A program made the translations under genes and the position numbers. A stretch of 64,000 nt of DNA from an uncultured virus (IMG/VR IMGVR_UViG_3300002097_000869) (Duplodnaviria > Heunggongvirae > Uroviricota > Caudoviricetes). The stretch covers positions 62,001 through 126,000 of the IMG/VR virus record IMGVR_UViG_3300002097_000869, one strand, 5' to 3'. Position 1 is the first letter of the stretch. Each line of letters starts with the position of its first letter. Shown one piece after another: positions 2 to 59,251 of the stretch. The notes under the pieces are model-generated. The model was given only the letters and a program-made list of their open reading frames with translations, was not told the DNA's origin and did no database searches.

Positions 2-76
2 TTTCATGGTCAATTTGATGTGTTGTTAAAAGACAGACAGGTTATATTAAGAAAGACAGGAATAAAAGAAGAGTAA
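2..76 (+). CDS. 3' end of a gene entering from the left edge (FHGQFDVLLKDRQVILRKTGIKEE*), product unknown
   Basis: Frame 2 is open from the window start to TAA at 74-76; the stop lies in the first bases of the IscB element. Confidence 0.6.
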   Translation, partial: FHGQFDVLLKDRQVILRKTGIKEE

Positions 77-319
77 GCAACCCCACGCCTAAGGGCGGGG
101 GCTTTCGAGTCCTTGCTTACTAGGGAACAATTCCAAAAAAGGAGTCGTTAATCGTTGAGTAGAAGAAATACATACACACCTACGGATGCTCCTCAAGTTC
201 GTAGCAACTGTGACGCTGAATTAAAAACCCCTAGGGGTAGGGGTGGTGTTCAGCGTTTAAAAACTCTACCCAACCGTCCCGATGAGGATCTAATCTTAGC
301 TTCGGCTAAGAGACAGAAC
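73..319 (+). ncRNA. omegaRNA (HEARO-like) scaffold of IscB copy 1; the guide would come from the 5' flank
   Basis: About 250-nt structured region upstream of the PLMP domain, nearly identical to 15803-16050. Hairpins include CCTACGGATGCTCCTCAAGTTCGTAG, GCTGAA...TTCAGC and CTTAGCTTCGGCTAAG. The 3' boundary is approximate. Confidence 0.8.
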
Positions 320-1569
320 TTGCGAGTCTCTGTCTATGTCTTAAACCAGCGAAGTCAGCCATTGATGCCAACAACACCAAGAAAAGCTGAGAAGCTATTG
401 AAGGAGGGAAAGGCTATAGTTGTTAAGCGAGCGCCTTTCACTATTCAGTTGACCTATTCTACGGGAGAGAACAAACAGCCCATCAGGCTAGGGGTAGATA
501 GTGGTTTCGTACACGTAGGATTATCAGCAGTTTCAAAGAAACAAGAACTTTACTCTGCCGAGGTTCAACTACGAATCGATATAGTGAATTTATTATCGGA
601 ACGTAGGTCTTATAGGAGAAATCGTAGAAATAGAAAGACTCGCTATCGTCAAGCTCGTTTCCTTAATCGAGGTATAAAAAAAGGCTGGCGGGCTCCTTCT
701 ATTCAGCACAAATTGGATAGCCATATTAGGTTGGTAAACAAGGTTAAGCAAATCTTACCCATTACTGAGGTGGTGGTAGAGGTAGCCTCGTTTGATATTC
801 AGAAGATAAAGAACCCAGAGATAAGTGGTAAACAGTATCAAGAGGGGGAACAAAAGGACTTTTGGAACACCAGAGAATACATCCTTCATAGAGATGACCA
901 TAAGTGCTGCCATTGTAAGGGTAAATCAAAGGACCCCATTCTTAGTGTTCACCATTTGGAATCTAGGAAGACTGGTGGTGATAAACCAGCTAATTTGATA
1001 ACGCTGTGTAAGACGTGCCACGATGATTACCATGGTGGAAAAATTGAATTGAAAGCGAAACCTTCCAAAGGGTTCAAAGCTGAAGTTTTTATGACAATGG
1101 TACGATGGCGCTTAGTAGAACAGTTGCAATGTAGGTACATCTATGGCTATGTCACCAAACAAGCTAGGGTATTGTTAGGCTTGCCTAAGAGCCATATCAA
1201 CGACGCATTTGTAATCGTGAGTTCAGGGGCGTGTCCTAGAAGCCAAACCTACTTTATTAAGCAGGTTAGAAAGCAAAATCGTAAGCTCTTTAAGGGACTA
1301 CATAGTGGAATAAGAAACACAGCAACTCGTTATATCCAAGGTTTTCAACGGTATGATAAAGTACTATGGAAGGGACAGGAGTGTTTTGTGTTTGGTAGAC
1401 GAACCACGGGTTACTTTGACCTGAGATTATTAGACGGCACCAAAGTCCATACTTCAGCTAAGGCTAAGGACTGTGTTAGACTAGAAAGCGGTAAAACGTT
1501 ACTAACCCAAATAAGGAGCAGCGCTTCCTCCCCATGGTTAAAACCAAGGGTTTCCGCGCTGGAGATTCA
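73..1569 (+). mobile_element. IS200/IS605-superfamily IscB (OMEGA) element, copy 1; no tnpA
   Basis: Left end GTAAGCAACCCCACGCCTAAGGGCGGGGGCTTT hairpin and right end CTTCCTCCCCATGGTTAAAACCAAGGGTTTCCGCGCTGGAGATTCA; both ends are shared with copies at 15803-17288 and 58778-59034. Confidence 0.9.
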
Positions 1570-1573
1570 ATGA
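320..1573 (+). CDS. iscB: IscB RNA-guided endonuclease (PLMP, RuvC, bridge helix, HNH)
   Basis: VYVLN..PLMP, RuvC-I LGVDSG, RRSYRRNRR helix, RuvC-II VVVEVASFD, HNH VHHLES..NLITLCKTCH, RuvC-III SHINDA. Start placed at TTG 320 because the ORF-track extension from 155 runs through the omegaRNA. Confidence 0.93.
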   Translation: MRVSVYVLNQRSQPLMPTTPRKAEKLLKEGKAIVVKRAPFTIQLTYSTGENKQPIRLGVDSGFVHVGLSAVSKKQELYSAEVQLRIDIVNLLSERRSYRRNRRNRKTRYRQARFLNRGIKKGWRAPSIQHKLDSHIRLVNKVKQILPITEVVVEVASFDIQKIKNPEISGKQYQEGEQKDFWNTREYILHRDDHKCCHCKGKSKDPILSVHHLESRKTGGDKPANLITLCKTCHDDYHGGKIELKAKPSKGFKAEVFMTMVRWRLVEQLQCRYIYGYVTKQARVLLGLPKSHINDAFVIVSSGACPRSQTYFIKQVRKQNRKLFKGLHSGIRNTATRYIQGFQRYDKVLWKGQECFVFGRRTTGYFDLRLLDGTKVHTSAKAKDCVRLESGKTLLTQIRSSASSPWLKPRVSALEIQ

Positions 1574-2229
1574 CTGCTTTAGCTATAGTAGGAGCAGGGG
1601 GCCATGGTAGAGAGGTTTTATTATATTCTCAAGGGGTGCATGATTATAAATTTGAGGACGTATTTTTTCTTGACGATAATGAGAAACTAATAGGTTCTTA
1701 TGTTTGTGATGCTTTGGTATTAGGTACAATAGAGGGGACCGTTGAAAGGCTGGATCCAGAAGATACCCTTTTTGTATGTGCCGTGGGTTCCCCTTATTTA
1801 CGTATGGCCTTTGTTAACAGAGTACTCGCTGTGTGGGGCGACAGGGCTAAGTTCGCAAACATAGTGCATAGTAGTATTTTTTTATCGAAGTTTGTAAGTT
1901 TGGGTGTCGGGAGTATGGTTTGTCCTGGTACCTTAGTGACTACCAATGTAAAGATAGGTAACCATGTGAGTGTAAATTTGAATTGCACTCTAAGTCACGA
2001 TGTTGTTATCGAGGACTTTGTGAATTTATCCCCCGCTGTACATTTATGTGGCGGTAGTATTCTTCGGGAGGGGTGCGACATAGGGGCGGCTGTAACTGTA
2101 ATACCTAAGGTAGAAATTGGGGAGGGGGCTGTAGTAGGTGCCGGTGCTTGTGTTATTTCTGATATTCCACCACATAGTCTGGCTGTTGGTGTTCCTGCCA
2201 GAATTGTTCGTCACAATTTAAATAAGTGA
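1570..2229 (+). CDS. NeuD/PglD-type sugar N/O-acetyltransferase (left-handed beta-helix)
   Basis: AIVGAGGHGREV Rossmann N-terminus, NIVH, SHD and hexapeptide repeats, C-terminal VGVPAR; ATG at 1570 after GGAG. Confidence 0.88.
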   Translation: MTALAIVGAGGHGREVLLYSQGVHDYKFEDVFFLDDNEKLIGSYVCDALVLGTIEGTVERLDPEDTLFVCAVGSPYLRMAFVNRVLAVWGDRAKFANIVHSSIFLSKFVSLGVGSMVCPGTLVTTNVKIGNHVSVNLNCTLSHDVVIEDFVNLSPAVHLCGGSILREGCDIGAAVTVIPKVEIGEGAVVGAGACVISDIPPHSLAVGVPARIVRHNLNK

Positions 2230-2236
2230 GGGCCTT

Positions 2237-3262
2237 ATGAAAATATTAGTTTGCTGTCCGGGGTCTTGGCGTCATGGTTTAGATAGCCCAGAAAGAGGGG
2301 AGGGTCGTTGGGCACAAAATTTAGCTCGTTTGCTAGGAAAGCTGGGGCATGATGTATATGCCTGTAGTATGGGTGCTCCTATATGGGGGGAAGGTATAGT
2401 TGCTCAGAACGTGCGTCTTATACAAGAGCACGAGGCTAAGCAATTCCAGCCTTTTGATATATACATAGATACTGCTTGGTGGAATGAGAAGGTTCCCTCT
2501 GCTACAGCAAAGAAAAATTTCCATGTCCACTGGTCATTAGAGCAGCATTTAAGAACAGTTAACTTTCCAAAAGACCACTATATTATTTATCCCTATTATA
2601 GTTCAAAAGAATATTTTATTGGGGATTTTAATCCTATAAATGATAGAACTTTCTTTTTACCCGTTCCTCTATGTGAGACATTTGCTGAGCCTTCTTTTGA
2701 TAAAAAAAGTTTACTTTGTCCTACAAGCGGTAATTCTTGGGACCATGCTCCTTACGAGTTATTTTCTATTTTTTCTAGGGTTTTGAAGGAAATCTTAAAA
2801 GAAAACCCTGATTTATCTACTGATTGGTTGTTTAGTGACGCTCTTGTGCCACCAATATCCAAGCGTAATCTTATTAGCGAGTTGGATAATCGGGCAGGAA
2901 AAGATAGGTTTCATAGAACCTTACCATACCATAAAGTAATGTCTATTATTTCCAGTTGTAAGTTAGCTGTTCCCCTTAGAATACAGGGCTGCCTATTGGA
3001 TTCAACCGCCCTTGGTGTCCCTACTATTGTTTGGGAAGAGTGTTGCTGGTTCCCAAGAATTAAACAAATAGCGGAAAATAACGGTGTTCTTATAGAAAAG
3101 GGAAATGAAACATGTGATAGACTTAAGCATATTGTTTCTTTACTTCTTACAGATAAAGAATTATATATAAAGTATGTTAAGGAGCTTCAAGGTGAACTTG
3201 GTCATCATACAGAGGCCGGTACTGCAGCGTGTTTTAATCATATATTGGAACAGATTTTTTAA
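2237..3262 (+). CDS. Putative GT-B fold glycosyltransferase, paralog A
   Basis: N-terminal G-E-x-x-A-x-N-L-A..GHDV and C-terminal LLDSTALGVPTI resemble GT4; paralog of 5658-6656; sugar-operon context. Confidence 0.55.
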   Translation: MKILVCCPGSWRHGLDSPERGEGRWAQNLARLLGKLGHDVYACSMGAPIWGEGIVAQNVRLIQEHEAKQFQPFDIYIDTAWWNEKVPSATAKKNFHVHWSLEQHLRTVNFPKDHYIIYPYYSSKEYFIGDFNPINDRTFFLPVPLCETFAEPSFDKKSLLCPTSGNSWDHAPYELFSIFSRVLKEILKENPDLSTDWLFSDALVPPISKRNLISELDNRAGKDRFHRTLPYHKVMSIISSCKLAVPLRIQGCLLDSTALGVPTIVWEECCWFPRIKQIAENNGVLIEKGNETCDRLKHIVSLLLTDKELYIKYVKELQGELGHHTEAGTAACFNHILEQIF

Positions 3263-3280
3263 TCGTATTTAGGAGGCACA

Positions 3281-4231
3281 ATGTCTTTCAAAAGATTAAA
3301 TATTTTTATTACAGGTATAAATGGTTTTCTAGGAACTGCTACGGCAGAATATTTTTTAAACTGTGGTGCACATGTTATCGGTTTAGTTAGAGATCAGAAT
3401 AGAAAGACAATGAGGGGGATTCAGGATAGATGTTCCATTGTTTATGGGGATGTTACTGATAAGTCATTGGTTCAGCGTATTATTTCCCATTATGAGGTTG
3501 ACTATGTTATACATCTTGCCTCTCAGCCCATAGTTAAGATTTGTGATAATGACCCCTATACTGCTTATAATACTAATGTTATGGGCGTTGTTAGTGTTTT
3601 GGAGGCGTGCAGAGTAATGAGGCAGGCAGCACCACGGGTCTTGGTAATGTCCTCGGATAAGTTCTATAGTAATGCACAAGAGCTTCCTTATGTAGAGGAT
3701 TTATCCCCTATTGTCTCTGATACATATTGTACGTCCAAGCTATGCCAAGATTTTATTGCCCGTTCATACGCTATTACCTATAACCTACCTATATTTACGG
3801 CTCGTGCGGGTAACATCTACGGTCCAGGGGACTTGAACTTGTCTCGTCTTATACCAAAAAACACCATTAGAATTCTTGAGGGTGATAATCCGGTTTTGTA
3901 TGGTCAGGCGGCTGAGTTTGTTAGGGAATTTTTGTACATAGACGATATAATGACTGCTTTTGACACACTACTTACAAAAGCGGTTCCAGGGGAGGCCTAT
4001 AATATTGGTGGTACCAAGCCGTATAAGATACTAGATGTTTTAGAACTCTTAAGAGACAAGATAAACCCAAATATTAAAATAGATGTAGTTGATGTTGATT
4101 TTTACGAAATAAGCAAGCAGTATTTAGACGCTTCGAAACTCATGTCTTTAGGGTGGTGCCCTAAGGTTTCTTTGGACGAAGGTTTGTCTCGAACTATTTC
4201 TTGGTATAAAGACTATTTAAATAGGGTTTAA
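3281..4231 (+). CDS. NDP-sugar dehydratase/epimerase (extended SDR, CDP-glucose 4,6-dehydratase-like)
   Basis: ITGINGFLG, HLASQP, SSDK, YCTSK, R-x-GNIYGPGD, REFLYIDD. Confidence 0.9.
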   Translation: MSFKRLNIFITGINGFLGTATAEYFLNCGAHVIGLVRDQNRKTMRGIQDRCSIVYGDVTDKSLVQRIISHYEVDYVIHLASQPIVKICDNDPYTAYNTNVMGVVSVLEACRVMRQAAPRVLVMSSDKFYSNAQELPYVEDLSPIVSDTYCTSKLCQDFIARSYAITYNLPIFTARAGNIYGPGDLNLSRLIPKNTIRILEGDNPVLYGQAAEFVREFLYIDDIMTAFDTLLTKAVPGEAYNIGGTKPYKILDVLELLRDKINPNIKIDVVDVDFYEISKQYLDASKLMSLGWCPKVSLDEGLSRTISWYKDYLNRV

Positions 4232-4236
4232 ATAAA

Positions 4237-4884
4237 ATGTACAAAAAATACGAAAAGGTTTTGTTAGAAGAGTGTGGCATAGATTTTAATCGCTATATAA
4301 CCGTTTTGGCTAATAATGGTAACACTACTGGTATATATGCTGACGTTGCTTTGTTACTGTATAGGTTAGTAAGGTTTAGTGGTACTAATAGTGTGTTGGA
4401 GTTTGGTAGTGGCATGAGTACCCTTATACTGTCAAAGGCTTGTATGGATTATGGTAAGAATTTGGTGGTGGGAGAGTCCGGGCGTAAGTGGTATAATATA
4501 ACAAAGGTGTGTTTAGATGCACTGTCTTTAAACAGCAGAGGGTTTGTGTGTACAGATAGCGATGAAAGTAAGTTTCCTGTTTTGGATGGTCCTGTTTCCT
4601 TAGTGTGGGTTGATGGTACTGTTTCCGAAGTACAGGGGCCTGGGTATAATAGGCTGGGGTCTTGTGAGTATTATTGGAATAGTATAAAAGGGGCCTGCCT
4701 TCTTTTTGATGATTCTGAGTCTGCTTATATGTCTGGTATTAAACCAGTACTTGAACAAAACGGCAGAAGTGACGATAGTTATTTTTTATTTAATCCAACC
4801 GGGAGAGGTGATAGGCAGGTCTTGGTTTCTGTACCAGAGTCTGGTGAACAATTTTTAGACGTTGTAAAATCTTGTATTCTTTAA
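4237..4884 (+). CDS. Class I SAM-dependent methyltransferase
   Basis: VLEFGSGMST motif I, LVWVDG, LLFDD. Confidence 0.75.
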   Translation: MYKKYEKVLLEECGIDFNRYITVLANNGNTTGIYADVALLLYRLVRFSGTNSVLEFGSGMSTLILSKACMDYGKNLVVGESGRKWYNITKVCLDALSLNSRGFVCTDSDESKFPVLDGPVSLVWVDGTVSEVQGPGYNRLGSCEYYWNSIKGACLLFDDSESAYMSGIKPVLEQNGRSDDSYFLFNPTGRGDRQVLVSVPESGEQFLDVVKSCIL

Positions 4885-4894
4885 GGGGGGTATC

Positions 4895-5656
4895 ATGAGT
4901 TATAGAATTTCAGAAGAACAAATACGAAAAGATCAGGCAGAATTTAAGAAGGAGTATCCTCCGTTTGTGCCTTTTGCACTAAATTCTAGTGATAAAAATA
5001 AGTTAGCTAATAAGTTTTCTTCCCTACTAGTAACACAAAACGGAATGGACACAGACGACTACTGTGTTAATGATAACAACAAGGTAGAGACGTATTTAAA
5101 GGACGTAAAACCTGGCAGCACTGTTTTACTTTTGGGTACGGGTACAGGAAGAGAGGTGCTGGTGGCTAAAGAGATGGGGTTTTTAGCTATAGGTACGACT
5201 TTGGGTTCACGAAATGTTTATTTTGGTCACAAGTTTTTGCGTTTGGGTCCGAGTGAGTTAGTTGAGTGTGCAAACGAGGTCCTACCTTTTAGAAACAATT
5301 CTTTTGACGTTGTAGCTGGGTTCCAAGTATTTGAACATGCCATAGCTCCGTTTTTATTTTTGATGGAGTTACGAAGGGTTTTGAAGTACGGGGGAAGGGT
5401 TTTAATGGAGTGGCCTCCTGCGTCAGACTACCATATGGGCCAAAATCCCCACCATCAAGTTTGTTACTGTCCTGGACAGGCGGAGTCCTTGTTACAAAAG
5501 GCTTGTTTTGAAAATATAAAGTCCTATTATAGTAATTTGCAGCCCATACCAGACGATGAAGTATGGTCTGCTAGGAATCACGGGCATATGTTGTGTGTTG
5601 AGGGCATAAAAAGTAGGGCCGAACAAGATTTTGTTGGTTTGTATTTAGGAGCTTAG
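4895..5656 (+). CDS. Class I SAM-dependent methyltransferase (type 11-like)
   Basis: VLLLGTGTG, LPFRNNSFDVV, VFEH, ELRRVLKYGG. Confidence 0.85.
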   Translation: MSYRISEEQIRKDQAEFKKEYPPFVPFALNSSDKNKLANKFSSLLVTQNGMDTDDYCVNDNNKVETYLKDVKPGSTVLLLGTGTGREVLVAKEMGFLAIGTTLGSRNVYFGHKFLRLGPSELVECANEVLPFRNNSFDVVAGFQVFEHAIAPFLFLMELRRVLKYGGRVLMEWPPASDYHMGQNPHHQVCYCPGQAESLLQKACFENIKSYYSNLQPIPDDEVWSARNHGHMLCVEGIKSRAEQDFVGLYLGA

Positions 5657-5657
5657 G

Positions 5658-6656
5658 GTGAAGGTACATATTAATTGCCCTGGTATGTGGAGGGCGGACT
5701 TGGAAAGCCCAGAAAGGGGAGAGAGCAGGTGGGCTCAAAACTTAGTTAAGTTGTTGGGCACTGCAGGGCACGAGGTTTATGCTTCTAGTTATGGGTACCC
5801 AGAGTGGGTTAACCCTCCTGTTCCTAATGTTACCCTACTTAATGAGACGATGGATATGAGGGTATTGGGGAAGCTAGACTTACACATAGACGCTTCTTGG
5901 TGGGACGGTAAGGTTTTTCCAATAGATGCTAAGAAGAAGGTAATGGTTAAGTGGTCATTAGAAGACTATTTAAAAAAAGAGCCGTTACCAAAAGACCATT
6001 ACCTATTTTATCCTTATGAGTCTAGGGAAGTTTTATTTATGAATGACCAAAACCCAAGTAGGGATAGAACTTTTTTTATGCCTATACCTTTGTGTGAAAA
6101 GTTTGAAGAACCAAAGTTTAATAACAAAGGTATTTTATGGCCCTCAAAGGGGTTAGACGTAGAGGCAGGCTTTAAGGGGACGGCTGCATTTGTTTTGAAA
6201 GAGGTTTTATATCCCCTCCTTGAGCAAGATAATTCATTATTCGTTATTTGGATGATGTACCATGAACTTATAAAAACTGATTTAGATATACGAGTACGTA
6301 ATGGAATAGATGAAAGATATCCTTCATGTGCTTATAATGTAGTTATTGACCTGTTAAAAAGAAGTAAAATAGCTTTACCAATAAACCATCCCGGATCTAT
6401 ATTAGAATGTGCAGCCTATGGTGTAGCTAGTCTTATATGGGAAGACGCTGGGTTTTTTCCTGAGGTAGCCAAAAATAATGGTTTATTAATTGAGCGTGGG
6501 GCTAAAAAAGAAAGGATTAAAGAAGTTATATTACAACTTCTTAACGATGAATCAGTATACAATAAATACGTAAAAGATTTACAGTACGTATTAAGACATC
6601 ATGAAAACCCAACAGCTCTTTCTATATTTAATGATATAATGAGCAAGATATTTTAG
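5658..6656 (+). CDS. Putative GT-B fold glycosyltransferase, paralog B
   Basis: CPGMW..SPERGESRWAQNL..GHEVYA shared with 2237-3262; ILECAAYGV. Confidence 0.55.
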   Translation: MKVHINCPGMWRADLESPERGESRWAQNLVKLLGTAGHEVYASSYGYPEWVNPPVPNVTLLNETMDMRVLGKLDLHIDASWWDGKVFPIDAKKKVMVKWSLEDYLKKEPLPKDHYLFYPYESREVLFMNDQNPSRDRTFFMPIPLCEKFEEPKFNNKGILWPSKGLDVEAGFKGTAAFVLKEVLYPLLEQDNSLFVIWMMYHELIKTDLDIRVRNGIDERYPSCAYNVVIDLLKRSKIALPINHPGSILECAAYGVASLIWEDAGFFPEVAKNNGLLIERGAKKERIKEVILQLLNDESVYNKYVKDLQYVLRHHENPTALSIFNDIMSKIF

Positions 6657-6676
6657 CTTTCCTAGGAGGATTTAAA

Positions 6677-7558
6677 ATGACCGACCTACCCATCGTTTAT
6701 TGTGCTATGTGTAAAAACAACCTTTTTCAGTTAAATGAGGCTGTTGAATCTGTTCTTCCGTTTGTTGACTATGTTGTATTGGTTGACGGAGGCTCAGACG
6801 ATTGCACGCTATTCCATTTTCATGGAAGGGAGGACGAGGGTATACACCTATTTTTACACCCATGGAAAGACCATTTTTCTGAGCAGAGAAATAATTATAT
6901 AAAGAGGGCCAGGGAGGTTGTGGGTTCGGACTCCTTTTGGATTTTGGTTAGTGACCCAGATGAGCACTTTGATTCACAAACCTTGATGTCTTTGAGGGGG
7001 GTTCAAAGTACCTGTGTTAGCAGGAGACTTAATTCCGCGATGTTCAGGTGTAGGAGTGAGTCTTACATAGGGAACAGGAAGGTGTGGGAAAATTTAGATG
7101 ATTATCGAAAGTTGTTGTTTTTTTCATACGAACCGGGTATGGAGTACAGAGGAAATCCTCACGAGCACCTTGTTTTCCCGTCCGGAAATCCCCGGCCATT
7201 GGTGACTGATCTAATTTATTCACATAAAAAGTGGGAGTCCGTTATCTGGGAGCGCGGATGTCGCAATTATTGGATTCAAGGTGGGGGCGATAACGCCGGC
7301 GTAAAAAATCAACTTTGGGTGGAATTACGCCAACTTACAAAGGACTACTACGGAAGGGACCTATCTTGGGCTGAGTTCCAAAGGGAACTTGTCTATGCAA
7401 CAATACCTGACACGGTAAAGAGTTGGATGATTAATAAAGCTAGGTTGGATACAGGCTGGAGCGGGTCATCTGAATCTAGGGAAAATTACAAATATTTTTT
7501 CCGGTTTTTACATGCAGAATTAGAACCAGAAGAACTTCGTGGAACTTATATAGAATAG
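6677..7558 (+). CDS. Family 2 (GT-A) glycosyltransferase
   Basis: VLVDGGSDDCT, WKDHFSEQRN, WILVSDPDE (DxD), YRGNPHE. Confidence 0.85.
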   Translation: MTDLPIVYCAMCKNNLFQLNEAVESVLPFVDYVVLVDGGSDDCTLFHFHGREDEGIHLFLHPWKDHFSEQRNNYIKRAREVVGSDSFWILVSDPDEHFDSQTLMSLRGVQSTCVSRRLNSAMFRCRSESYIGNRKVWENLDDYRKLLFFSYEPGMEYRGNPHEHLVFPSGNPRPLVTDLIYSHKKWESVIWERGCRNYWIQGGGDNAGVKNQLWVELRQLTKDYYGRDLSWAEFQRELVYATIPDTVKSWMINKARLDTGWSGSSESRENYKYFFRFLHAELEPEELRGTYIE

Positions 7559-7567
7559 GAGAAAAAA

Positions 7568-7861
7568 ATGAAGTACATGCCTGTAAAGGAATTTCTTGAT
7601 AGTGGTTTATTATTCTTAGTAAATAAGGATATATTGCATCCTTTAGGTCTTGCGCTGTCAGTGTCCATAAGTGAAGAGGGAGAATATAGTTTTGTGGGTA
7701 TTTGGGATTGTAGAGAAGATCCAGGCGGGCTTAGTTATGAAGAGGAAACCTATAGAGACGGGCAGGAAAAGTGGCTGAAATATTATGATGAACAAGGTAG
7801 AAATAAAATAAGTGAGAGACACACTATTTTAGGTTATGTAGTACAAGAATTAGACAAGTAG
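7568..7861 (+). CDS. Hypothetical protein
   Basis: ORF with RBS GGAG, in operon. Confidence 0.65.
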   Translation: MKYMPVKEFLDSGLLFLVNKDILHPLGLALSVSISEEGEYSFVGIWDCREDPGGLSYEEETYRDGQEKWLKYYDEQGRNKISERHTILGYVVQELDK

Positions 7862-7864
7862 ATT

Positions 7865-8788
7865 ATGAATATACTTCTTCTTGGTGGCGCTGGTCTTATA
7901 GGTCGGCAACTAGAAAAACTTCTATCAGAAGACGGTCATAAAACTACCGTTATGGACAATTTTATGACTAGTGATGGTAAAGGATACAAACCAGTTGGAA
8001 ATATTATAACAGGTAACACAACAATGTTTTCAAATGTAAAACCTGTTTTTTCTACATTTAGTCCTGATGTTGTTTTTCATTTTTCCGAGTGTTGTACGGA
8101 CAAAAATGGGGATTATGATTTCATACTTGAGTCTCAAAATAAAATAGGTACTTGTTATTCTATATTACAATCTTTAAATTTATATAGTGTAAAATATATT
8201 TTTTATGGTTCATCTTGTGAGGTTTTTTCTTCCCCCGGCCAAAAAAAATTACACGAGAATAGTAAGACAGGGGGGTTTTCATATACTGGAAAAACAAATG
8301 ATTATGTAGAAAAGTTCTTTGAAGAAGCTTCAAAATATTATGGGTTTAAATTTATTCCTATTAGATATTTTAATGTTTGTGGCGAGCGTTTAGTTCCAAA
8401 TCCTAAGTCTGATATAGTAACTTCTTTTGTTGATTTGGTATTGAATAATGTATATTTTGATATTTTTGGTCCAAATTCATTAATTGACGTTTTAGACGTT
8501 GACGATGCTGTAAAAGCAACTTATTTATTATATAAGTCTGTTGTTGAAGGTTCTTTTTGTGGACCAATAAATATTGGTTCTGGTAATCCAATAAAACTTA
8601 TAGAATTGTTCGAGAAGGTAAATTTTTCTATAACGGATGAAAAATTAAAACCAGGTAAAATGAAGTCTAATGGGAATGTAGGTTCTTTTGTGTGTGATAA
8701 TACATTGATGCGCTCTCTTGGGTGGGAGCCTTCTGTGGATATTGAGTCTAGTATAGCTAAGGTTGTAAAATTTCGCCGGGGGAAATAA
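7865..8788 (+). CDS. NAD-dependent epimerase/dehydratase family protein with degenerate catalytic motif
   Basis: LLGGAGLIG, RYFNVCG, NIGSG, LGWEP; the YxxxK region reads SYTGKTNDYVE. Confidence 0.75.
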   Translation: MNILLLGGAGLIGRQLEKLLSEDGHKTTVMDNFMTSDGKGYKPVGNIITGNTTMFSNVKPVFSTFSPDVVFHFSECCTDKNGDYDFILESQNKIGTCYSILQSLNLYSVKYIFYGSSCEVFSSPGQKKLHENSKTGGFSYTGKTNDYVEKFFEEASKYYGFKFIPIRYFNVCGERLVPNPKSDIVTSFVDLVLNNVYFDIFGPNSLIDVLDVDDAVKATYLLYKSVVEGSFCGPINIGSGNPIKLIELFEKVNFSITDEKLKPGKMKSNGNVGSFVCDNTLMRSLGWEPSVDIESSIAKVVKFRRGK

Positions 8789-8795
8789 AAAAAGA

Positions 8796-10661
8796 ATGAA
8801 CAAAGAAGAGCTTGAACAATATAGAGCAGAAAAAGGTTTTGCTCTACCGTACAAACCCAACTATATATTTATAGATACAGAAGAAGAAGCATTAAAAGCA
8901 CTAGAACACCTAAAAACATTTGAAGTATTATCTGTAGATACAGAAACTACAGGTTTATCTCCGTATAATTCAAAACTACTTCTTATACAAATAGCTACAC
9001 CAGAACTATGCTATATTTTAAACTGTACTAAGGTTGATCCTAAAGTATGGTCTCCTATTTTTACTGACCTTAATATATTAAAAATCCTACAAAACGCTAA
9101 ATTCGACTATAAGTTTATAAAGGTATTTTGTGGTGTCTCAATGAGGCCGCTATTCGATACTTTTATTGCTGAGGCTTTAATAACTGCTGGTACAAAACAA
9201 CCGTTAAAATTAAACTTTATTGCTCTAAAATATTTAGGTATAGAAATAAATAAAGGCGTTAGAACGTCATTTATTGGACAATATAAGACTGATTTTTCTT
9301 TGATTGAAAAGTTGTATGCAGCGAATGATGCTTTGATATTGCATAATATCTATAATGATCAAGTTGACATTTTAGAGCGTGATGGCTTATTAAATATAGC
9401 AATGTTAGAATTTAAGACTATAGTTCCTATAGCTGAGATGGAACTTATTGGCAGTAGAGTAGATTCTAATAAATGGCGTTTGTTGGTGGAGGTTGCCAGA
9501 AAACATATGGGGGAATCGGAGATCAAAGTAAAAGATATTTTGGATCCTGTTTCTTCGCAACGAGATTTATTTGGTGGTTGCTCTATAAATCTTGGTAGCC
9601 CTGCTCAGTTATTGGCCCATTTAACAAGGTTGGGAATAAAGGTCCCTGGCCGTCAAGGGGTTTTGGAACCGATACAAAATACACAGGAAGAAACGCTTAA
9701 ACAAATCGCCCATCCAATAGGACCTGCTTTAATAGAGTATCGGGGGTGGGAGAAAATATGTAACGCTTATGGGGAAAAATTCTTAGAAAAGATAGATGCC
9801 AAAACAGGAAGGCTATATGCAGAGTTAAGTCAAATGGGCGCGGGGACAGGAAGGACGGCTTCTAAAAACCCCAATCTGCAACAAGTTCCAGGGTTTAATC
9901 CCGAAGATGAGACTACTTTGGATTTTAGGTCCTGTTTTATAGCTTCTCCGGGGTACAAACTTGTTGTTGGTGACTACCCACAACAGGAATTACGTATTTT
10001 AGCGGAGTTGTCTAAAGATGAAAAGTTTGCTAAGGCGTTTACTTTAGGGGTTGATCTACACACACGGACAGCCATTGACATTTGGGGTGGAACAGAGGAG
10101 GAGGTTAAGCAAAACGGAAATAGAAAAAAGGCAAAATCTATTAATTTTTTAATTTCATACGGCGGTCAAGCGTATACGTTAGCAAAAAGATTGGGTATGG
10201 ACGAAGATGAGGCCCAGAAAATTTTAAATGCCTATTTTTCTACGTATCCTAGAGTTAAAAAATATATAGAAGAGTATGGGGAAAAGGCTATTAGCAATGG
10301 GTATAGTGTTACTTTGGGTGGTAGAAGACGCTATTATGATTTTCCTACTACTGATGATGAGAAATATGATAGTAAGATGAGAGCGATAAGAAGAAAGGGA
10401 GCTAATCATTGCATCCAAGGTACCGCCGCTGATATCGGGAAACAAGCAATTTGCCATTTCTTTTATGAATTAGAAAAGTTAAATCTAGATGCTCATATCT
10501 CGATGTTCATCCATGATGAGATAGTTTGTGAAGCGAAGGTTGAACATGCTACTATGGTAGCCAAACTATTGGAGGAATGCATGGTACGAGCCTTTAAAGA
10601 TTTCTGTAAAAAGATATCAATAACTGTAGAAGCATGTATCGATGATACATGGAGACACTAG
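8796..10661 (+). CDS. polA: Family A DNA polymerase with 3'-5' exonuclease, no 5' nuclease domain
   Basis: DTETTG, QNAKFD, YAAND, TGRTASKNPNLQQVP, motif A DYPQQELR, motif B KAKSINFLISYG, motif C HDE. Confidence 0.95.
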   Translation: MNKEELEQYRAEKGFALPYKPNYIFIDTEEEALKALEHLKTFEVLSVDTETTGLSPYNSKLLLIQIATPELCYILNCTKVDPKVWSPIFTDLNILKILQNAKFDYKFIKVFCGVSMRPLFDTFIAEALITAGTKQPLKLNFIALKYLGIEINKGVRTSFIGQYKTDFSLIEKLYAANDALILHNIYNDQVDILERDGLLNIAMLEFKTIVPIAEMELIGSRVDSNKWRLLVEVARKHMGESEIKVKDILDPVSSQRDLFGGCSINLGSPAQLLAHLTRLGIKVPGRQGVLEPIQNTQEETLKQIAHPIGPALIEYRGWEKICNAYGEKFLEKIDAKTGRLYAELSQMGAGTGRTASKNPNLQQVPGFNPEDETTLDFRSCFIASPGYKLVVGDYPQQELRILAELSKDEKFAKAFTLGVDLHTRTAIDIWGGTEEEVKQNGNRKKAKSINFLISYGGQAYTLAKRLGMDEDEAQKILNAYFSTYPRVKKYIEEYGEKAISNGYSVTLGGRRRYYDFPTTDDEKYDSKMRAIRRKGANHCIQGTAADIGKQAICHFFYELEKLNLDAHISMFIHDEIVCEAKVEHATMVAKLLEECMVRAFKDFCKKISITVEACIDDTWRH

Positions 10662-15141: not shown

Positions 15142-15171
15142 GACCATTTTAGGGAGGGTGGATAAATCTTG

Positions 15172-15822
15172 ATGTTTGATATAGAAGAAACACTACGGGA
15201 TTCAGGAATTAATTTAATCTTAGGTGTGGATGAGGTAGGTAGGGGTGCTTTAATATCTGATGTTGTTGTTTCATGTGTAATTTTGCCGGCGGGCCATAAA
15301 ATAGAAGGTATAAAAGACTCAAAAAAATTTACAGGTCCTAAAGCGCATGAAAATAGAATAAAGATATCAAAATTAATACATGAAAGAGCTTTGGAAGTTC
15401 ATATAATTTCTGCACCAGCAGAAGTTATAGATAAAATAAATATATTAGAAGCAACAAAACTGTGTATAATAACAGCTATATCAAAATGTAAAATAAAACC
15501 AGGTATGGTTATAATAGATGGTGATATGGAATTTGAAGATGGTGAAATTATGTATCCATATATGTGTGTAGAAAAGGCGGACTCTAGGAGTGAAAACGTA
15601 GCGGCTGCCTCTATTGTAGCTAAGGTACACAGAGATAATCATATGTTATTGTTGGATAAAGTTTATCCACAATATGGTTTAGCACAGCACAAAGGCTATG
15701 GAACAAAAGAGCATATGGAGGCCATATTAAAATATGGTCCTTGTGAACTTCATAGGAAGTCTTTTAGTGTAAAAGGAAGAAAAATAGGGAGTATTAAACC
15801 TAGTAAGCAGCCCCACGCCTAA
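15172..15822 (+). CDS. rnhB: Ribonuclease HII
   Basis: GVDEVGRG, IKDSKK, IIDG, KAD..VAAASIVAKVHRD, HKGYGT, HRKSF; the last codons read into the IscB left end. Confidence 0.95.
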   Translation: MFDIEETLRDSGINLILGVDEVGRGALISDVVVSCVILPAGHKIEGIKDSKKFTGPKAHENRIKISKLIHERALEVHIISAPAEVIDKINILEATKLCIITAISKCKIKPGMVIIDGDMEFEDGEIMYPYMCVEKADSRSENVAAASIVAKVHRDNHMLLLDKVYPQYGLAQHKGYGTKEHMEAILKYGPCELHRKSFSVKGRKIGSIKPSKQPHA

Positions 15823-16050
15823 AGGTGGGGGCTTTTAGGAGCCCTTACTTACTAGGGAGCGATCCCAGAAAGGAGTCGTTAATCGTTGAGTAGAAGAGAT
15901 ACATACACACCTACGAATGCTCCTCAAGTTCATAGCAACTGTGGCGCTGAATTAAAAACCCCTAGGGGTAGGGGTGGTGTTCAGCGTTTAAAAACTCTAC
16001 CCAACAATCCCGATGAGGACCTAACCCGTGGACAGGGGGTACATTTAACA
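15803..16050 (+). ncRNA. omegaRNA scaffold of IscB copy 2
   Basis: Near-identical to 73-300, with compensatory-looking changes (CCTACGAATG..GTTCATAG versus CCTACGGATG..GTTCGTAG); 3' end approximate. Confidence 0.8.
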
Positions 16051-17288
16051 TTAGTGTACGTACTGAACAATCGTGGTGAGCCGTTGATGCCTTGTAGTCC
16101 AAAGAAAGCCAAAGCATTGCTAAAGGAGGGAAAAGCCAAGGTAAGGACTAGAACACCTTTTACGATACAATTGCTTTATGGTAGCTCAGGTTACAAACAA
16201 CCTATTAGGTTGGGAGTAGACAGTGGTTTTAAGCACGTAGGACTATCTGCTGTTTCTGACAAGCAGGAACTTTACTCTGTTGAAGTCCAGCTTAGAATCG
16301 ACATAGTGAATTTATTATCGGAACGTAGGTCTTATAGGAGAAATCGTAGAAATAGAAAGACTCGCTATCGTCAAGCTCGTTTCCTTAATCGAGGAATAAA
16401 AAAAGGCTGGCTAGCCCCCAGTATTCAACACAAACTAGATAGCCATGTTAGGTTAGTAAACAAGGTTAAGCAAATCTTACCCGTTATTGAGGTGGTGGTA
16501 GAGGTAGCCTTGTTTGATATTCAGAAGATAAAGAATCCAGAGACGGGTGGTAAACAGTACCAAGAAGGGGAACAAAAGGGTTTTTGGAACACCAGAGAAT
16601 ACATACTCCACAGGGACAACCACAAGTGTTGCCACTGTAAGGGTAAATCAAACGACACTGTTCTTAATGTTCACCATTTGGAGTCTAGAAAAATTGGTGG
16701 CGATAGACCGGAGAATTTAATAACACTTTGTAAGACGTGTCATGATACTTATCATAATGGAGGGATTAAATTGAAAGCAAAGCCTTCTAAAGGGTTCAAA
16801 GCTGAAACTTTTATGACAATGGTACGATGGCGTTTAGTAGAACAATTGAGCTGCAGCTACACTTATGGTTACGTTACCAAGCATAATAGAACCTTGATAG
16901 GACTACCCAAGAGTCACGCAAACGATGCATTTGTAATCGCGAGCAAAATAGACCGACCTAGATGTCAGTCTTATCAGATCAAACAAGTTAGGAAGCAAAA
17001 TCGTAAGCTGTTCAAAGGACCACATAGTGGAGTAAGAAACACAGCCGCTAGATATATTCAAGGTTTTCAACGGTACGATAAAGTAAAGTGGAAATCTCAG
17101 GAGTGTTTTGTGTTTGGGCGAAGGACTAGGGGTACTTTTGATCTAAGGCTACTAGATAGGACTAAACTTTGTGGTGATGCTAAAGCTAAAGACTGTGTTA
17201 GGCTAGAAAGCGGTAGAACGTTCTTAACTCAAAGGAGCAGCGTTTCTTCCCCGGGGCTAAAGCTCGGGGTACCCGCGCTGAAGATTTG
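15803..17288 (+). mobile_element. IscB (OMEGA) element, copy 2; no tnpA
   Basis: Left end GTAAGCAGCCCCACGCCTAAAGGTGGGGGCTTT; right end CTTCCCCGGGGCTAAAGCTCGGGGTACCCGCGCTGAAGATTTG. Confidence 0.9.
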
Positions 17289-17289
17289 A
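16054..17289 (+). CDS. iscB: IscB RNA-guided endonuclease, copy 2
   Basis: VYVLNNRGEPLMPC, LGVDSG, RRSYRRNRR, VVVEV, VHHLES..NLITLCKTCH, SHANDA; start codon uncertain (GTG 16054 chosen). Confidence 0.92.
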   Translation: MYVLNNRGEPLMPCSPKKAKALLKEGKAKVRTRTPFTIQLLYGSSGYKQPIRLGVDSGFKHVGLSAVSDKQELYSVEVQLRIDIVNLLSERRSYRRNRRNRKTRYRQARFLNRGIKKGWLAPSIQHKLDSHVRLVNKVKQILPVIEVVVEVALFDIQKIKNPETGGKQYQEGEQKGFWNTREYILHRDNHKCCHCKGKSNDTVLNVHHLESRKIGGDRPENLITLCKTCHDTYHNGGIKLKAKPSKGFKAETFMTMVRWRLVEQLSCSYTYGYVTKHNRTLIGLPKSHANDAFVIASKIDRPRCQSYQIKQVRKQNRKLFKGPHSGVRNTAARYIQGFQRYDKVKWKSQECFVFGRRTRGTFDLRLLDRTKLCGDAKAKDCVRLESGRTFLTQRSSVSSPGLKLGVPALKI

Positions 17290-18344
17290 TGGCTAGTTTT
17301 GATTTAGATAAAGAATATTTAAGTCTTGATGATGTTCTTTTGGTACCTGCCTATTCAGAAATAGCAAGCAGGTTGGATACAGATATATCTACAACATTGG
17401 TTGGTAATATAAAGATAAAAATACCTGTTGTTTCAGCTGCCATGGATACAATTTCTGGGAAGGATATGGGTATCAAGTTGGGTCGTTTAGGTGGGGCCGC
17501 TTTTCTTCACAGGTTTGCTTCAGATGAAGAAATTGTGTCCATGGTAAAAGATATAAAAGAGGCAGGTCAGTTAGCTATACCTTCTATAGGAATAAGGAAG
17601 GACATAGTTCAATGGGTAGATGTATTATTGGGCGCCGGTGCTGACGTAATATCTATTGATATAGCACACGGGCACAGTAAAGAGGTTTTAACAACAATAG
17701 GTTTGTTGAAGGGCGTTTATAAAGAGGCGTGCAAAGTAGTGGCTGGTAATGTTGCCACAAAAGAGGGTGTTCATGACCTAATTGAGGCGGGTGCAGACGC
17801 TGTAAAGGTTTTTGTAGGCCCGGGGGCTGCGTGTTCTACTCGTGTAGTAACTGGTTTTGGCGTCCCTACCTTCTCATGTTTAGTAGAGTGTCTTGGTGAG
17901 GCATCTAGACACAATATTCCTATAATAGCTGATGGTGGGCTAAAAGCCCCCGGTGATTTTACTAAATGCTTGGCAGTGGGTGCTAGTGCCTGTATGTCAG
18001 GATCAATGCTCTCTGCTACGGATGAGACTCCTGGTAAGTATGTAAAGATACGGGACAAATTTTATAAAGAATACAGGGGGATGGCGTCTGAGGCTAGCCA
18101 GAAGGACTTCAAGAGGGGGTTGAAATTAGGTACTGCGTCAGAGGGTGAGGCTATGCTTTTTGAATCTAAGGGACCTGTAAAGGATGTTATAGATAGGATA
18201 ACCGGAGGCATTAGAAGCGGCCTTACCTATTGTGGGGCTAAAAACCTGCAAGAGCTTAGGGAAAAAGCCCGCTTTATAAGAATAACCCAAAGTGCGGCAG
18301 CGGAAGGTTTGCCACACGGCCTGAATAACAAGGGGGCCCTTTGA
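17289..18344 (+). CDS. IMP dehydrogenase / GMP reductase family protein without CBS domains
   Basis: DDVLLVP, SAAMDT, IDIAHGHS, AGNVAT, VGPGAACSTR (catalytic Cys), IIADGG, YRGMAS, EG. Confidence 0.9.
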   Translation: MASFDLDKEYLSLDDVLLVPAYSEIASRLDTDISTTLVGNIKIKIPVVSAAMDTISGKDMGIKLGRLGGAAFLHRFASDEEIVSMVKDIKEAGQLAIPSIGIRKDIVQWVDVLLGAGADVISIDIAHGHSKEVLTTIGLLKGVYKEACKVVAGNVATKEGVHDLIEAGADAVKVFVGPGAACSTRVVTGFGVPTFSCLVECLGEASRHNIPIIADGGLKAPGDFTKCLAVGASACMSGSMLSATDETPGKYVKIRDKFYKEYRGMASEASQKDFKRGLKLGTASEGEAMLFESKGPVKDVIDRITGGIRSGLTYCGAKNLQELREKARFIRITQSAAAEGLPHGLNNKGAL

Positions 18345-57409: not shown

Positions 57410-58777
57410 TTAATGATAACGAATTAACATATTTTTCTGTTCGTAAGCAGCTTTCCTTTTCCAGAATTGATTTTTAAACATTTTTATATTGTCTACATAA
57501 TCGTAGACAATAGCATTTTCTTTTCCTTCCAACGGTCTCTCAATCCTGCCAGTTGACTGAACTATTAGGCTAGAACTCTTTAGGGGGGCGGCGAGAAATA
57601 AGCGACTTGAAGGTTTATAATTAAAACCCTCAGCTAGAAGGCCATAGGTTACTATAAGTATTTTTGTTTCTCCAGAGAGAAACCCTTCTATCTGTTTATC
57701 CCTAATCTTATTTGTCTGTTTGGAATGCGGAGAAGCAACAGTTATCCCCAAACTATTAAAGATATCTGTTAGAATATCTATATGTTTAGTGGTAACAGTT
57801 AATACCATACAGGTATTTTCTAGACCATACTCATATAGTATATCTGATACTATGAGATTGTTTCTTCTTTCATTAGTAGAAATATATTCTATTAGATCTG
57901 CATAGTTGGCTCCCCATAACTTCTTCGTAGCGGTAATTTCAGTATAGTGTACTAAGACAGAAGAATTTATTATTCTATTTGCATCTACTGCATCCTTATG
58001 CTTTATTGTTGTTACTACTGGTCCTATGTAATTAAACATCAAAGGATCTAATCCATCTTCTCTATACGGGGTAGCTGTAATTCCATATAAAAATCTAGGA
58101 GAAAATCCACAGATAACCTTTAAGAAAGTAGAGGAAGGAACATGTTGGCATTCATCAACAAGTATTAATCCAAAAGAATATTTAAGTTCTTTTATTAGTT
58201 CTTTGTTACGAACTAGTGTGGGAACCATACCTATAGTAAGTATATCCCCAAGTGCCTTCTTACTCTCTCCTATAATTCCTATTTTTCCTACTTCTATAAA
58301 TTTCTCTATCTCTTTCTTAACTTGTTTAACAAGGGGCCCCCTATGAGTTAGCCATAGTGTGGGTAACCCTAGTCTGGCTATGACTTCCAAAGCCATTACA
58401 GTTTTTCCACTTCCTGCGGGGGCTATGCCAATACCCTGTCGGTGGGAAACTAAACTCTCAACCCAGGGTATTTGTATAGGTTCCAACTTTATGTTATTAT
58501 TTATTAATCTTTTACTGAAATTGGCGGTAGTGTCTTCTATAACATTTATACTATTAGTTATTTCTGTAGCCCTATAGAGATAGCCTCTAGGAACTATTAT
58601 GCCTTCGGTTATTTCTGAATATTGTTTTATGAATTTTGGTATACCGAAGGTTCGTCTGCCAAATTGTATAGCAGATTTCCACGCAGGATTCGGGAAGGTT
58701 AGGTCTTTTCTAAATTGGTCTAGTTCAGTTTTTGATATGTTTGTTATAGTTAAGTCTTTGTCAATTTTGACATCCAT
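57410..58777 (-). CDS. SF2 DEAD/DEAH-box helicase (UvsW-like)
   Basis: APAGSGKT, DECQH, TATPYREDG, LAEGFN, QSTGRIER, YDYVD; ATG at 58777. Confidence 0.92.
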   Translation of the reverse strand: MDVKIDKDLTITNISKTELDQFRKDLTFPNPAWKSAIQFGRRTFGIPKFIKQYSEITEGIIVPRGYLYRATEITNSINVIEDTTANFSKRLINNNIKLEPIQIPWVESLVSHRQGIGIAPAGSGKTVMALEVIARLGLPTLWLTHRGPLVKQVKKEIEKFIEVGKIGIIGESKKALGDILTIGMVPTLVRNKELIKELKYSFGLILVDECQHVPSSTFLKVICGFSPRFLYGITATPYREDGLDPLMFNYIGPVVTTIKHKDAVDANRIINSSVLVHYTEITATKKLWGANYADLIEYISTNERRNNLIVSDILYEYGLENTCMVLTVTTKHIDILTDIFNSLGITVASPHSKQTNKIRDKQIEGFLSGETKILIVTYGLLAEGFNYKPSSRLFLAAPLKSSSLIVQSTGRIERPLEGKENAIVYDYVDNIKMFKNQFWKRKAAYEQKNMLIRYH

Positions 58778-59034
58778 CAAATCTTCAACGCGAGTACCCC
58801 GAGCTTTAGCTCTGGGGAGGAAGCGCTCCTCCTTGTTGTATTAGTAAAGTTTTACGACCTTTTAACCAAACAGTAGTCATGGCTTTAGGTCACTTATGAT
58901 TCGTAATTAGCTGGTTTGTTATCCCCAGTCTTCCTAGATTTTACTTGAGTAATGCTTTGGCTTTCCTTTTTTGGAATTATTTCCTAGTAAGCAAGGACTT
59001 GAAAGCCCCCGTTTTTAGGCGGGGGGTTATTTAT
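58778..59034 (-). mobile_element. Non-autonomous 257-bp internally deleted derivative (MITE-like) of the IscB element
   Basis: Minus strand keeps the left end (ATAAATAACCCCCCGCCTAAAAACGGGGGCTTTCAAGTCCTTGCTTACTAGG), three short iscB fragments and the right end (CTTCCTCCCCAGAGCTAAAGCTCGGGGTACTCGCGTTGAAGATTTG). Confidence 0.88.
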
Positions 59035-59041
59035 AGTCCTC

Positions 59042-59251
59042 TTACAAGGTCGTAGAACCCATCTCTTTAGGGGTGGGATATAAGGCCTTTTGATAGTCCT
59101 CACTTTCTTTTTTTACTATATTTGTAACTTCTACTTCGTATCCTCCTTCTTCTAAGTTTTTTCTATGTCTGTCTCTAAGTTTCATAAATTCATAGTATTC
59201 TTTCATGGATTCAAATGTTCTTCCTGGAAATAGGGGAACAGTGAAAGCCAC
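59042..59251 (-). CDS. Hypothetical protein
   Basis: Operon ORF. Confidence 0.55.
   Translation of the reverse strand: MAFTVPLFPGRTFESMKEYYEFMKLRDRHRKNLEEGGYEVEVTNIVKKESEDYQKALYPTPKEMGSTTL

Follow-up and report, generated by a model that had tools for sequence, protein, structure and literature searches.

Some families of the ISC transposons, as defined by Kapitonov, Makarova and Koonin, have 5′-GT ends and, as judged from the empty sites in the accessible parts of that article, insert at N|ATGA (Kapitonov et al., 2016; PMC4810608). According to the accessible parts of a second study, GstIscB as well as its TnpA depends on a TTCAT 5′ of the transposon left end (LE), which is ATGAA on the iscB strand, and the orientation of the elements is biased to match the upstream gene (Meers et al., 2023; 10.1101/2023.03.14.532601). 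Here we describe three IscB elements of an uncultured virus, found in a window of 64,000 nucleotides (the whole stretch of DNA analysed; bases 62001-126000 of the 133,010-bp IMG/VR record IMGVR_UViG_3300002097_000869, for which CheckV gives a completeness of 58%), each of which ends directly before the ATG of the next gene. By their sequences all three are assigned to the non-autonomous ISC (IS200/IS605-superfamily) transposons, each with, or formerly with, IscB and a HEARO-type omega RNA. The element type, the target and the target-adjacent motif (TAM) are already published; the parts worth a bench test are the surplus of start codons beyond what non-disruption yields, and the translation of the downstream genes.

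The whole account, in which trans-mobilised ISC elements would insert at ATGA(A) or ATGG and start codons would make up a large part of the harmless sites, we consider quite probable. An original prediction made from the letters of the window had seen the target motif as steering insertions, or their survival, towards gene junctions, and the element ends as supplying a ribosome-binding site (RBS); the first of these, its core, is right and generalises, and the second is weak. Neither “start codon” nor “initiation codon” occurs in the accessible text of Kapitonov et al. (2016; PMC4810608), and in that of Meers et al. (2023) no remark on start codons was found, the single occurrence of the phrase concerning a plot axis. 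A statement that IscB/HEARO elements sit at start codons was likewise not found in the accessible full-text literature. Work by Weinberg and colleagues from 2009 is reported to have placed the integration of HEARO elements just upstream of ATGA or GTGA; if so, the core of the finding has been in print since 2009.

Element boundaries and the target motif

The sequence reads at all three ends as the original prediction had it: copy 1 finishes with GGAGATTCA, followed by the ATG at 1570; copy 2 finishes with GAAGATTTG before the ATG at 17289, and copy 3, on the minus strand, with GAAGATTTG before the ATG at 58777 (Table 1). The iscB stop of each full copy shares bases with this ATG: it lies inside the ATGA in copy 1 (TGA at 1571-1573) and forms a TGATG overlap in copy 2 (TGA at 17287-17289). 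All three copies share their orientation with the genes on both sides, and a flanking target duplication is not visible at any of them. The ATGs at 1570 and 17289 are true starts by homology (Pfam domains from residues 4 and 11, profile position 2); the helicase ATG at 58777 is the putative start of its open reading frame (ORF). The 5′ boundary that the prediction had assumed is borne out by the HEARO model (RF02033), position 1 of which falls at 73 in copy 1 and at 15803 in copy 2, and the 3′ end of copy 1 is placed on the base preceding the ATG by alignment of the copies and by homology with an occupied and empty pair of loci in Sutterella.

In this pair the boundary of the relative can be read directly. 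The occupied locus (L154) has ...GACAAGAAGAG ahead of the element, which runs from GTCAAT... to ...CAATTCT and is followed by ATGGACAGCG; a congeneric genome (L254) has both flanks without the element, 83% and 81% identical, and there ...GAAAGAGAAG is joined directly to ATGGACAGCG. The element therefore starts at HEARO position 1 and finishes on the base before the ATG, and the ATG is part of the target, the insertion displacing a purine-rich native leader.

Empty alleles, to which the original prediction had looked for its junctions, thus support the boundary in a relative; for the phage’s own three sites none were found among phage records, IMG/VR relatives and metagenome contigs. A megablast of phage records gave no match, and the relative L006/L088 in IMG/VR, at 99.96% identity, proved to be this phage again, with its insertion. 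The joint of 72 to 1570 is not in the Logan contigs of four groundwater runs, which is no evidence of absence, as contigs drop rare variants; the joints that are listed in Logan contigs are cross-mapping of copies 2 and 3. Synteny in other phages offered methyltransferase relatives at no more than 44% identity and two distant IMPDH relatives, none usable for the junctions, and helicase relatives were not found there.

A 247.6-kb metagenome contig (L261) holds the same sequence, 100% identical and with the insertion, and the runs that contain it are groundwater or soil metagenomes. An assembly artefact was rejected, since contigs from three runs bridge both copy-1 junctions (72/73 and 1569/1570); the internal joint of copy 3 was also found again in contigs. 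In one groundwater run, a contig agrees with the element from about base 69 on and has a different, GC-rich upstream flank. A related element therefore occupies a different locus or belongs to a different organism in that community.

The original prediction regarded the insertion of copy 1 as silent at the protein level. This is so for the upstream methyltransferase gene (L001:849-1517), which ends K-E-E-stop with or without copy 1, the empty version using the TGA of the ATGA, and it is not general: the RNase HII stop (15820-15822) lies inside copy 2, and the empty allele would have a different, shorter tail. Upstream of copy 3, the ORF ends 7 nt short of the element; next comes GAGGACT, which is probably the native Shine-Dalgarno (SD) sequence of the helicase gene, now about 260 nt from its ATG.

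Given these three insertions, we collected relatives with IscB proteins of 48-78% identity. The cellular set comprises the best 80 of 346 confirmed loci (bacteria and archaea, one genome per species) and the viral set the best 80 of 255 confirmed loci in IMG/VR; removal of short matches and duplicates gave 100 distinct 3′ regions, or 96 without the window copies and a locus of the same phage (L173). Of the loci collected, L089 and L090, which lie together in another viral contig, are the closest relatives; each ends right before the ATG of a long frame, with the iscB stop within the hairpin loop. The 3′ ends have a recurrent order, usually GGAGG, outer arm, TTCCTCC, inner hairpin, TTTCC, complement of the arm, a spacer (mostly of 7 nt) and the ATG, and a nested LE hairpin, imperfect and subterminal and standing in place of terminal inverted repeats, is present in all three window copies and in 57 script-parsed relatives. 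A strict parser for perfect stems missed most ends, those of copies 1 and 2 included, and a tolerant one was used in its place. It parsed 58 of the 96 ends, 57 of them with an ATG 2-22 nt after the arm; 28 further boundaries were placed by eye, and 85 were assigned in all (63 cellular, 22 viral). The rule takes whichever ATG comes closest to a distance of 7 nt beyond the outer arm, so that an abutting ATG in 85/85 holds by construction. Eleven relatives stayed unassigned (L102, L133, L134, L136, L179, L182, L187, L188, L221, L246, L248), at least two of which differ in having tnpA downstream.

In the 85 relatives the ATG is followed by A 75 times and by G 10 times, and the fifth base is A in 67. 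As read from these sequences, the family motif is ATGA(A), with ATGG a minority form that includes copies 2 and 3. The ATGR that the original prediction took for a genuine target and TAM is upheld by these counts, which agree with the published N|ATGA and TTCAT.

Three relatives (L124, L134 and L187) are without the usual LE and continue, just downstream of iscB, into a further ORF. We take this ORF to resemble the N-terminus of an IS200/IS605 Y1 transposase, in which case these would be autonomous iscB-tnpA elements; L134 and L187 were excluded from the boundary count owing to it.

Start codons among the insertion sites

A frame of at least 60 codons (or one that leaves the locus after at least 40) begins at the flanking ATG in 41 of the 63 cellular and 13 of the 22 viral relatives, 54/85 overall; most insertions thus stand before such a frame and not before a non-start ATG, as the original prediction expected. 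With a threshold of at least 100 codons the counts are 40/63 and 7/22, and random ATGR sites in the same loci open a frame of that length in 18% of cases (710/3935). Pfam matches were obtained for 32 of 52 downstream ORFs of at least 60 codons. In 17 ORFs the first domain begins at profile position 4 or earlier and within the first 38 residues, and N-terminally truncated domains among the ORFs with matches number 0. The genes behind the elements include those for isocitrate/isopropylmalate dehydrogenase, LigD-type ligase, RlmN, RRF, signal peptidase, CopA-type ATPases (twice), RpiA and TraG; as some of these are usually essential (RRF, signal peptidase), expression evidently survives the insertion. 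The two CopA-type cases (L141 and L169; HMA domain at residues 6-68) come from different Sutterellaceae genomes with the element at the start codon of the copper ATPase in both, either an inherited insertion or repeated targeting of one gene start.

How often a start would be hit by chance depends on the null. Under a crude ORF model (longest ORF) about 95% of the window is coding. With 78 crude genes and, outside the elements, 1040 ATGR sites, the chance of three starts out of three is for random sites at most (78/1040) cubed, about 4e-4. Non-disruptive ATGR sites in the window comprise 36 gene starts and 45 intergenic sites, 24 of the latter co-oriented. In the flanks of the relatives, ATGA at gene starts accounts for 63 of 2618 ATGA sites in the cellular set (2.4%) and 33 of 981 in the viral set (3.4%), and gene starts form 22% and 28%, respectively, of the non-disruptive ATGA sites. 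The observed start-codon share of 65% (cellular) and 59% (viral) exceeds these values with P = 1e-13 and 0.002. Landing on start codons is an enrichment, not a rule, and by our estimate a two- to three-fold surplus is left after generous corrections. The survey of about 85 bacterial, archaeal and phage insertions in this way quantifies a concentration at start codons beyond the avoidance of gene disruption.

The bias towards gene junctions that the original prediction ascribed to ATGR is therefore found as enrichment, which may stem from insertion or from survival. By analogy with the proposal of Meers et al. (2023) for the orientation bias, the most economical extra factor would be the need for transcription from upstream: the element must be transcribed from there because its guide lies outside it, and a start codon by definition lies in transcribed sequence and in sense orientation.

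Translation behind the elements and rival explanations

GGAG or GAAG followed by 5 nt precedes the ATG at each of the three ends, so that the letters seen in the original prediction are there. An SD core (GGAG, GAGG or AGGA) is found at −16 to −4 of 33 of the 78 crude phage starts against a background of 8%, and the phage therefore uses SD sequences. GAAG, however, precedes only 5 of the 78 genes, against a background of 4.8%; copies 2 and 3 therefore supply no SD, and only copy 1 (GGAG, 5-nt spacing) does. Among the relatives an SD core (GGAG or GAGG) occurs in the last 15 nt of 15/85 ends, or 16/85 with AGGA and AAGG included. The iscB stop overlaps the ATG in 20 relatives, 17 times as ATGA and three times as TGATG or TAATG, and lies at least 12 nt upstream of it in 49. 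Neither an SD-bearing end nor a stop/start overlap is general, and these counts do not support them as traits of the element family, yet the genes behind the elements are evidently still used.

In the account favoured here, a Y1 TnpA supplied in trans would insert the single-stranded element without duplication, directly 5′ (on the iscB strand) of the 4-5-nt target ATGA(A)/ATGG, and IscB would read the same motif as its 3′ TAM. A Y1 transposase (PF01797) was not found in the phage record, itself estimated as 58% complete; TnpA (Y1) is present in four of five cellular genomes that hold relatives. Many of the harmless targets in a dense genome would be start codons because ATGA, a start followed by an A-initial codon, is the commonest gene beginning. 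Elements at starts would persist as the ORFs stay intact and the downstream gene is still translated, and as they lie in sense orientation in a transcribed operon, where the IscB guide is transcribed from the upstream flank. Translation downstream may proceed by the stop/start overlap with iscB in copies 1 and 2, from the GGAG 5 nt upstream of the ATG in copy 1, and by non-SD initiation in copy 3 and many relatives. IscB with its upstream 16-nt guide would cut element-free alleles, in which the guide match is followed by ATGA, and recombination after the cut would copy the element in, amounting to RNA-guided homing in phage co-infection. Cleavage, guide use and homing are attributed to these elements by analogy.

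Several points weigh against this account. The boundaries of the three window copies rest on sequence homology, their own empty alleles not having been found. The rule of the ATG nearest 7 nt presupposes an ATG, placement by eye supplied 28 of the 85 boundaries, and 11 relatives had to be omitted as unassignable. Short frames follow in 31/85 relatives, mostly at an intergenic ATGA. Under a null of TAM plus non-disruption the three out of three in the window have P = 0.09-0.22, and the window by itself therefore requires only TAM and purifying selection. The gene calls of the null are crude (longest ORF) and the insertions are phylogenetically non-independent, which makes the size of the excess uncertain. 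Finally, the helicase gene behind copy 3 has neither an iscB ORF nor an SD core in the spacer before it and its native GAGGA is displaced, which leaves its translation unexplained. The window’s P value with its 36 gene-start and 45 intergenic sites, the 31 relatives at a non-start ATGA and the scarcity of SD cores (15/85) all suit pure survivorship, with TnpA inserting at any ATGA, starts being merely non-disruptive and the element end idle in downstream translation. We think this unlikely on balance: starts are 22% of the non-disruptive ATGA sites in the cellular set as against 41/63 insertions (P = 1e-13), the expectation is estimated to stay below 50% even with undercounted starts and co-orientation allowed for, and the native SD is split from the ATG, yet RRF and signal peptidase genes sit behind elements, so that some hand-off of translation must exist.

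Whether that hand-off has evolved is another matter; an LE end adapted to restart translation, through the stop-start overlap or through a GGAG placed either in the spacer or at the 5′ foot of the stem, is a tentative possibility. The position of the SD core speaks for it: among short-spacer ends it lies within 10 nt 5′ of the outer arm in 37/51 and within the spacer in 0/51, whereas in long-spacer ends it is inside the spacer in 7/8. The modal spacer of 7 nt (23 of the 51 short-spacer elements), the GGAGAUUCA-AUG stretch of copy 1, which is unpaired in the fold, and the iscB stops that overlap the ATG in 20/85 point the same way. A folded LE stem in the mRNA might conceivably set the GGAG 5′ of the arm at about 7-8 nt from the ATG. 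The GGAGG, however, also encodes the IscB C-terminus and pairs with TTCCTCC, and may be kept for the protein or for a TnpA-bound DNA hairpin; 14/51 short-spacer elements are without the motif, and folding of the LE in copies 1 and 2 is not significantly more stable than that of shuffled sequences (z = −0.7 and −1.0). It is highly improbable that the terminal ATG(A) belongs to the element and is fused to downstream sequence, importing starts. The register is the same in all copies, and occupied sites alone cannot distinguish a TAM from a terminal nucleotide, but the L254 empty site retains the ATG and the same downstream codons, on which grounds this explanation was rejected; the empty sites in the accessible parts of Kapitonov et al. 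(2016; PMC4810608) also put ATGA in the target and not in the terminus, and the downstream products begin at profile position 1-4 of their own families. Less credible still is an IStron-like insertion, self-spliced from the mRNA so that its position relative to ORFs is irrelevant. IscB- or TnpB-bearing IStrons exist, according to the accessible parts of a published account (PMC13565253), but the elements lie between ORFs and not within them, and a whole-window Rfam scan at gathering thresholds gave two HEARO matches only and no group I intron, for which reason splicing was rejected.

In most LEs of the family (for example at window positions 1514-1530) the motifs that flank the outer arm, GGAGG on its 5′ side and TTCCTCC on its 3′ side, are complementary. 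TTCCTCC resembles the anti-SD end of 16S rRNA. An alternative GGAGG/TTCCTCC hairpin could mask the SD-like motif.

A further step beyond trans-mobilised insertion at ATGA(A)/ATGG would be to see the ATGA target as an evolved strategy of “start-codon parking,” the element landing on the first base of a gene, which we regard as rather doubtful. The element would gain read-through transcription for its externally encoded guide and a stop for its open-ended iscB ORF (the TGA of the ATGA ends iscB in 17/85 relatives and in copy 1), and ribosomes would be handed to the host gene by the stop/start overlap or by a folded-LE GGAG about 7-8 nt from the ATG. If true, parking would permit harmless residence before essential genes and in phage operons, and would explain the approximately three-fold over-representation of start codons among non-disruptive ATGA sites.

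Features of the window and relation to known systems

Table 1. Coordinates of the IscB elements and adjoining genes in the window
Feature	Position	Strand	Evidence or remark
Flank expected to give the 16-nt guide of the copy-1 omega RNA (3′ end of methyltransferase gene)	57..72	+	predicted
IscB element copy 1, non-autonomous ISC / IS200-IS605 type, 1497 bp	73..1569	+	5′ end from HEARO model, 3′ end from homology
Omega RNA scaffold (HEARO, RF02033), copy 1	73..294	+	113.9 bits against a gathering score of 83, model positions 1-211
iscB copy 1, start codon unsettled	320..1573	+	RRXRR 1.2e-65, HNH 4.6e-6; stop TGA 1571-1573 in flank
3′ (LE) end of copy 1, outer arms 1519-1524 and 1556-1561 around inner hairpin	1519..1569	+	
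PglD-like hexapeptide acetyltransferase, start abutting copy 1	1570..2229	+	PglD_N residues 4-85, profile positions 2-78
RNase HII gene, final 6-7 codons and stop within copy 2	15169..15822	+	
IscB element copy 2, 1486 bp	15803..17288	+	79% identity to copy 1 over almost full length
Omega RNA scaffold (HEARO), copy 2	15803..16025	+	116.3 bits, model positions 1-211
iscB copy 2, approximate start	16045..17289	+	RRXRR 1.6e-65, HNH 2.7e-6
IMPDH/GMP-reductase family gene, start abutting copy 2	17289..18344	+	IMPDH 4.8e-101, residues 11-343, profile 2-345
ResIII/DEAD-type helicase gene, start abutting copy 3	57410..58777	-	
Copy 3, gutted 257-nt derivative with both ends kept, without iscB	58778..59034	-	three pieces at 89%, 89% and 77% identity
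69-aa ORF (stop 59044-59042), then GAGGACT	59035..59251	-	presumed native helicase SD

A search of the 133,010-bp record with the DNA of copy 1 gave three IscB/HEARO-related places, all inside the window, and no further copies. The stop TGA of iscB copy 2 has its A in common with the IMPDH ATG, and at the LE end of copy 1 an 8-nt spacer, GAGATTCA, follows the outer arm. Copy 3 consists of about 65 nt of 5′ scaffold, which score below the HEARO gathering threshold, 36 nt left over from the HNH region and about 76 nt of LE. Both full copies encode a protein of IscB layout, with PLMP/RRXRR, split RuvC and an HNH insert. The catalytic-type columns D60, E154, H211, H212 and D295 are invariant in the IscB alignment. 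The guide of copy 1 is placed where it is because the published IscB guide lies just 5′ of the scaffold, outside the transposon, and the scaffold begins at 73.

In the region 1534-1572 the acetyltransferase ORF can be lengthened by 12 codons, to an in-frame ATG at 1534 that falls within the copy-1 LE hairpin, and an ORF caller would put the start of this gene there, within the transposon. The surroundings of copy 1 (L001:2-1517 and window 1570-8800) resemble a sugar or nucleotide-sugar modification cluster, with a radical-SAM-like ORF (identified by eye, without a Pfam scan) and a class-I methyltransferase-like gene upstream and the PglD-like acetyltransferase gene downstream. In a viral relative (L177, 3732-4256) the gene directly behind the IscB element has a NUMOD3 motif, typical of homing endonucleases, which would put two selfish nucleases side by side.

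For annotation, an iscB ORF running to ATGA shows exactly where the transposon ends and where the next gene truly begins. The host genes survive having their native RBS moved 1.5 kb away, and the hand-off hypothesis is testable with reporters. The window also documents IscB elements between conserved genes of a jumbo-size phage, where they could act as RNA-guided homing endonucleases.

As far as the accessible text of Kapitonov et al. (2016; PMC4810608) describes them, the closest transposons are ISC1-1_MA, ISC2-1_HM and ISC2-1_MS, which like the window elements are non-autonomous, encode IscB only and have a 5′-GT(C/A)A terminus and subterminal hairpins; insertion without duplication directly upstream of ATGA is probably a further shared trait. 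They differ in residing in cyanobacterial and proteobacterial chromosomes, whereas the window elements reside in a large phage from groundwater, with ATGG at two of their three sites. Both full copies match the HEARO RNA model (Rfam RF02033) end to end, and they share with ISGst5 of Geobacillus stearothermophilus a HEARO-type omega RNA bounded by the transposon end, with a guide from the upstream flank; for ISGst5, in the accessible parts of the study, nuclease activity, excision and TAM were shown experimentally, whereas the window elements are known as sequence (Meers et al., 2023; 10.1101/2023.03.14.532601). As selfish nuclease genes between conserved phage genes they also resemble the free-standing Seg and Mob homing endonuclease genes of T-even phages, as described in the accessible parts of PMC13565253, and like these they would be expected to spread by cutting the element-free allele in co-infection. 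Unlike Seg and Mob, whose target is read by the protein, the window elements would have theirs read by an RNA together with a 4-5-nt TAM, and with their transposon ends they can move to new sites.

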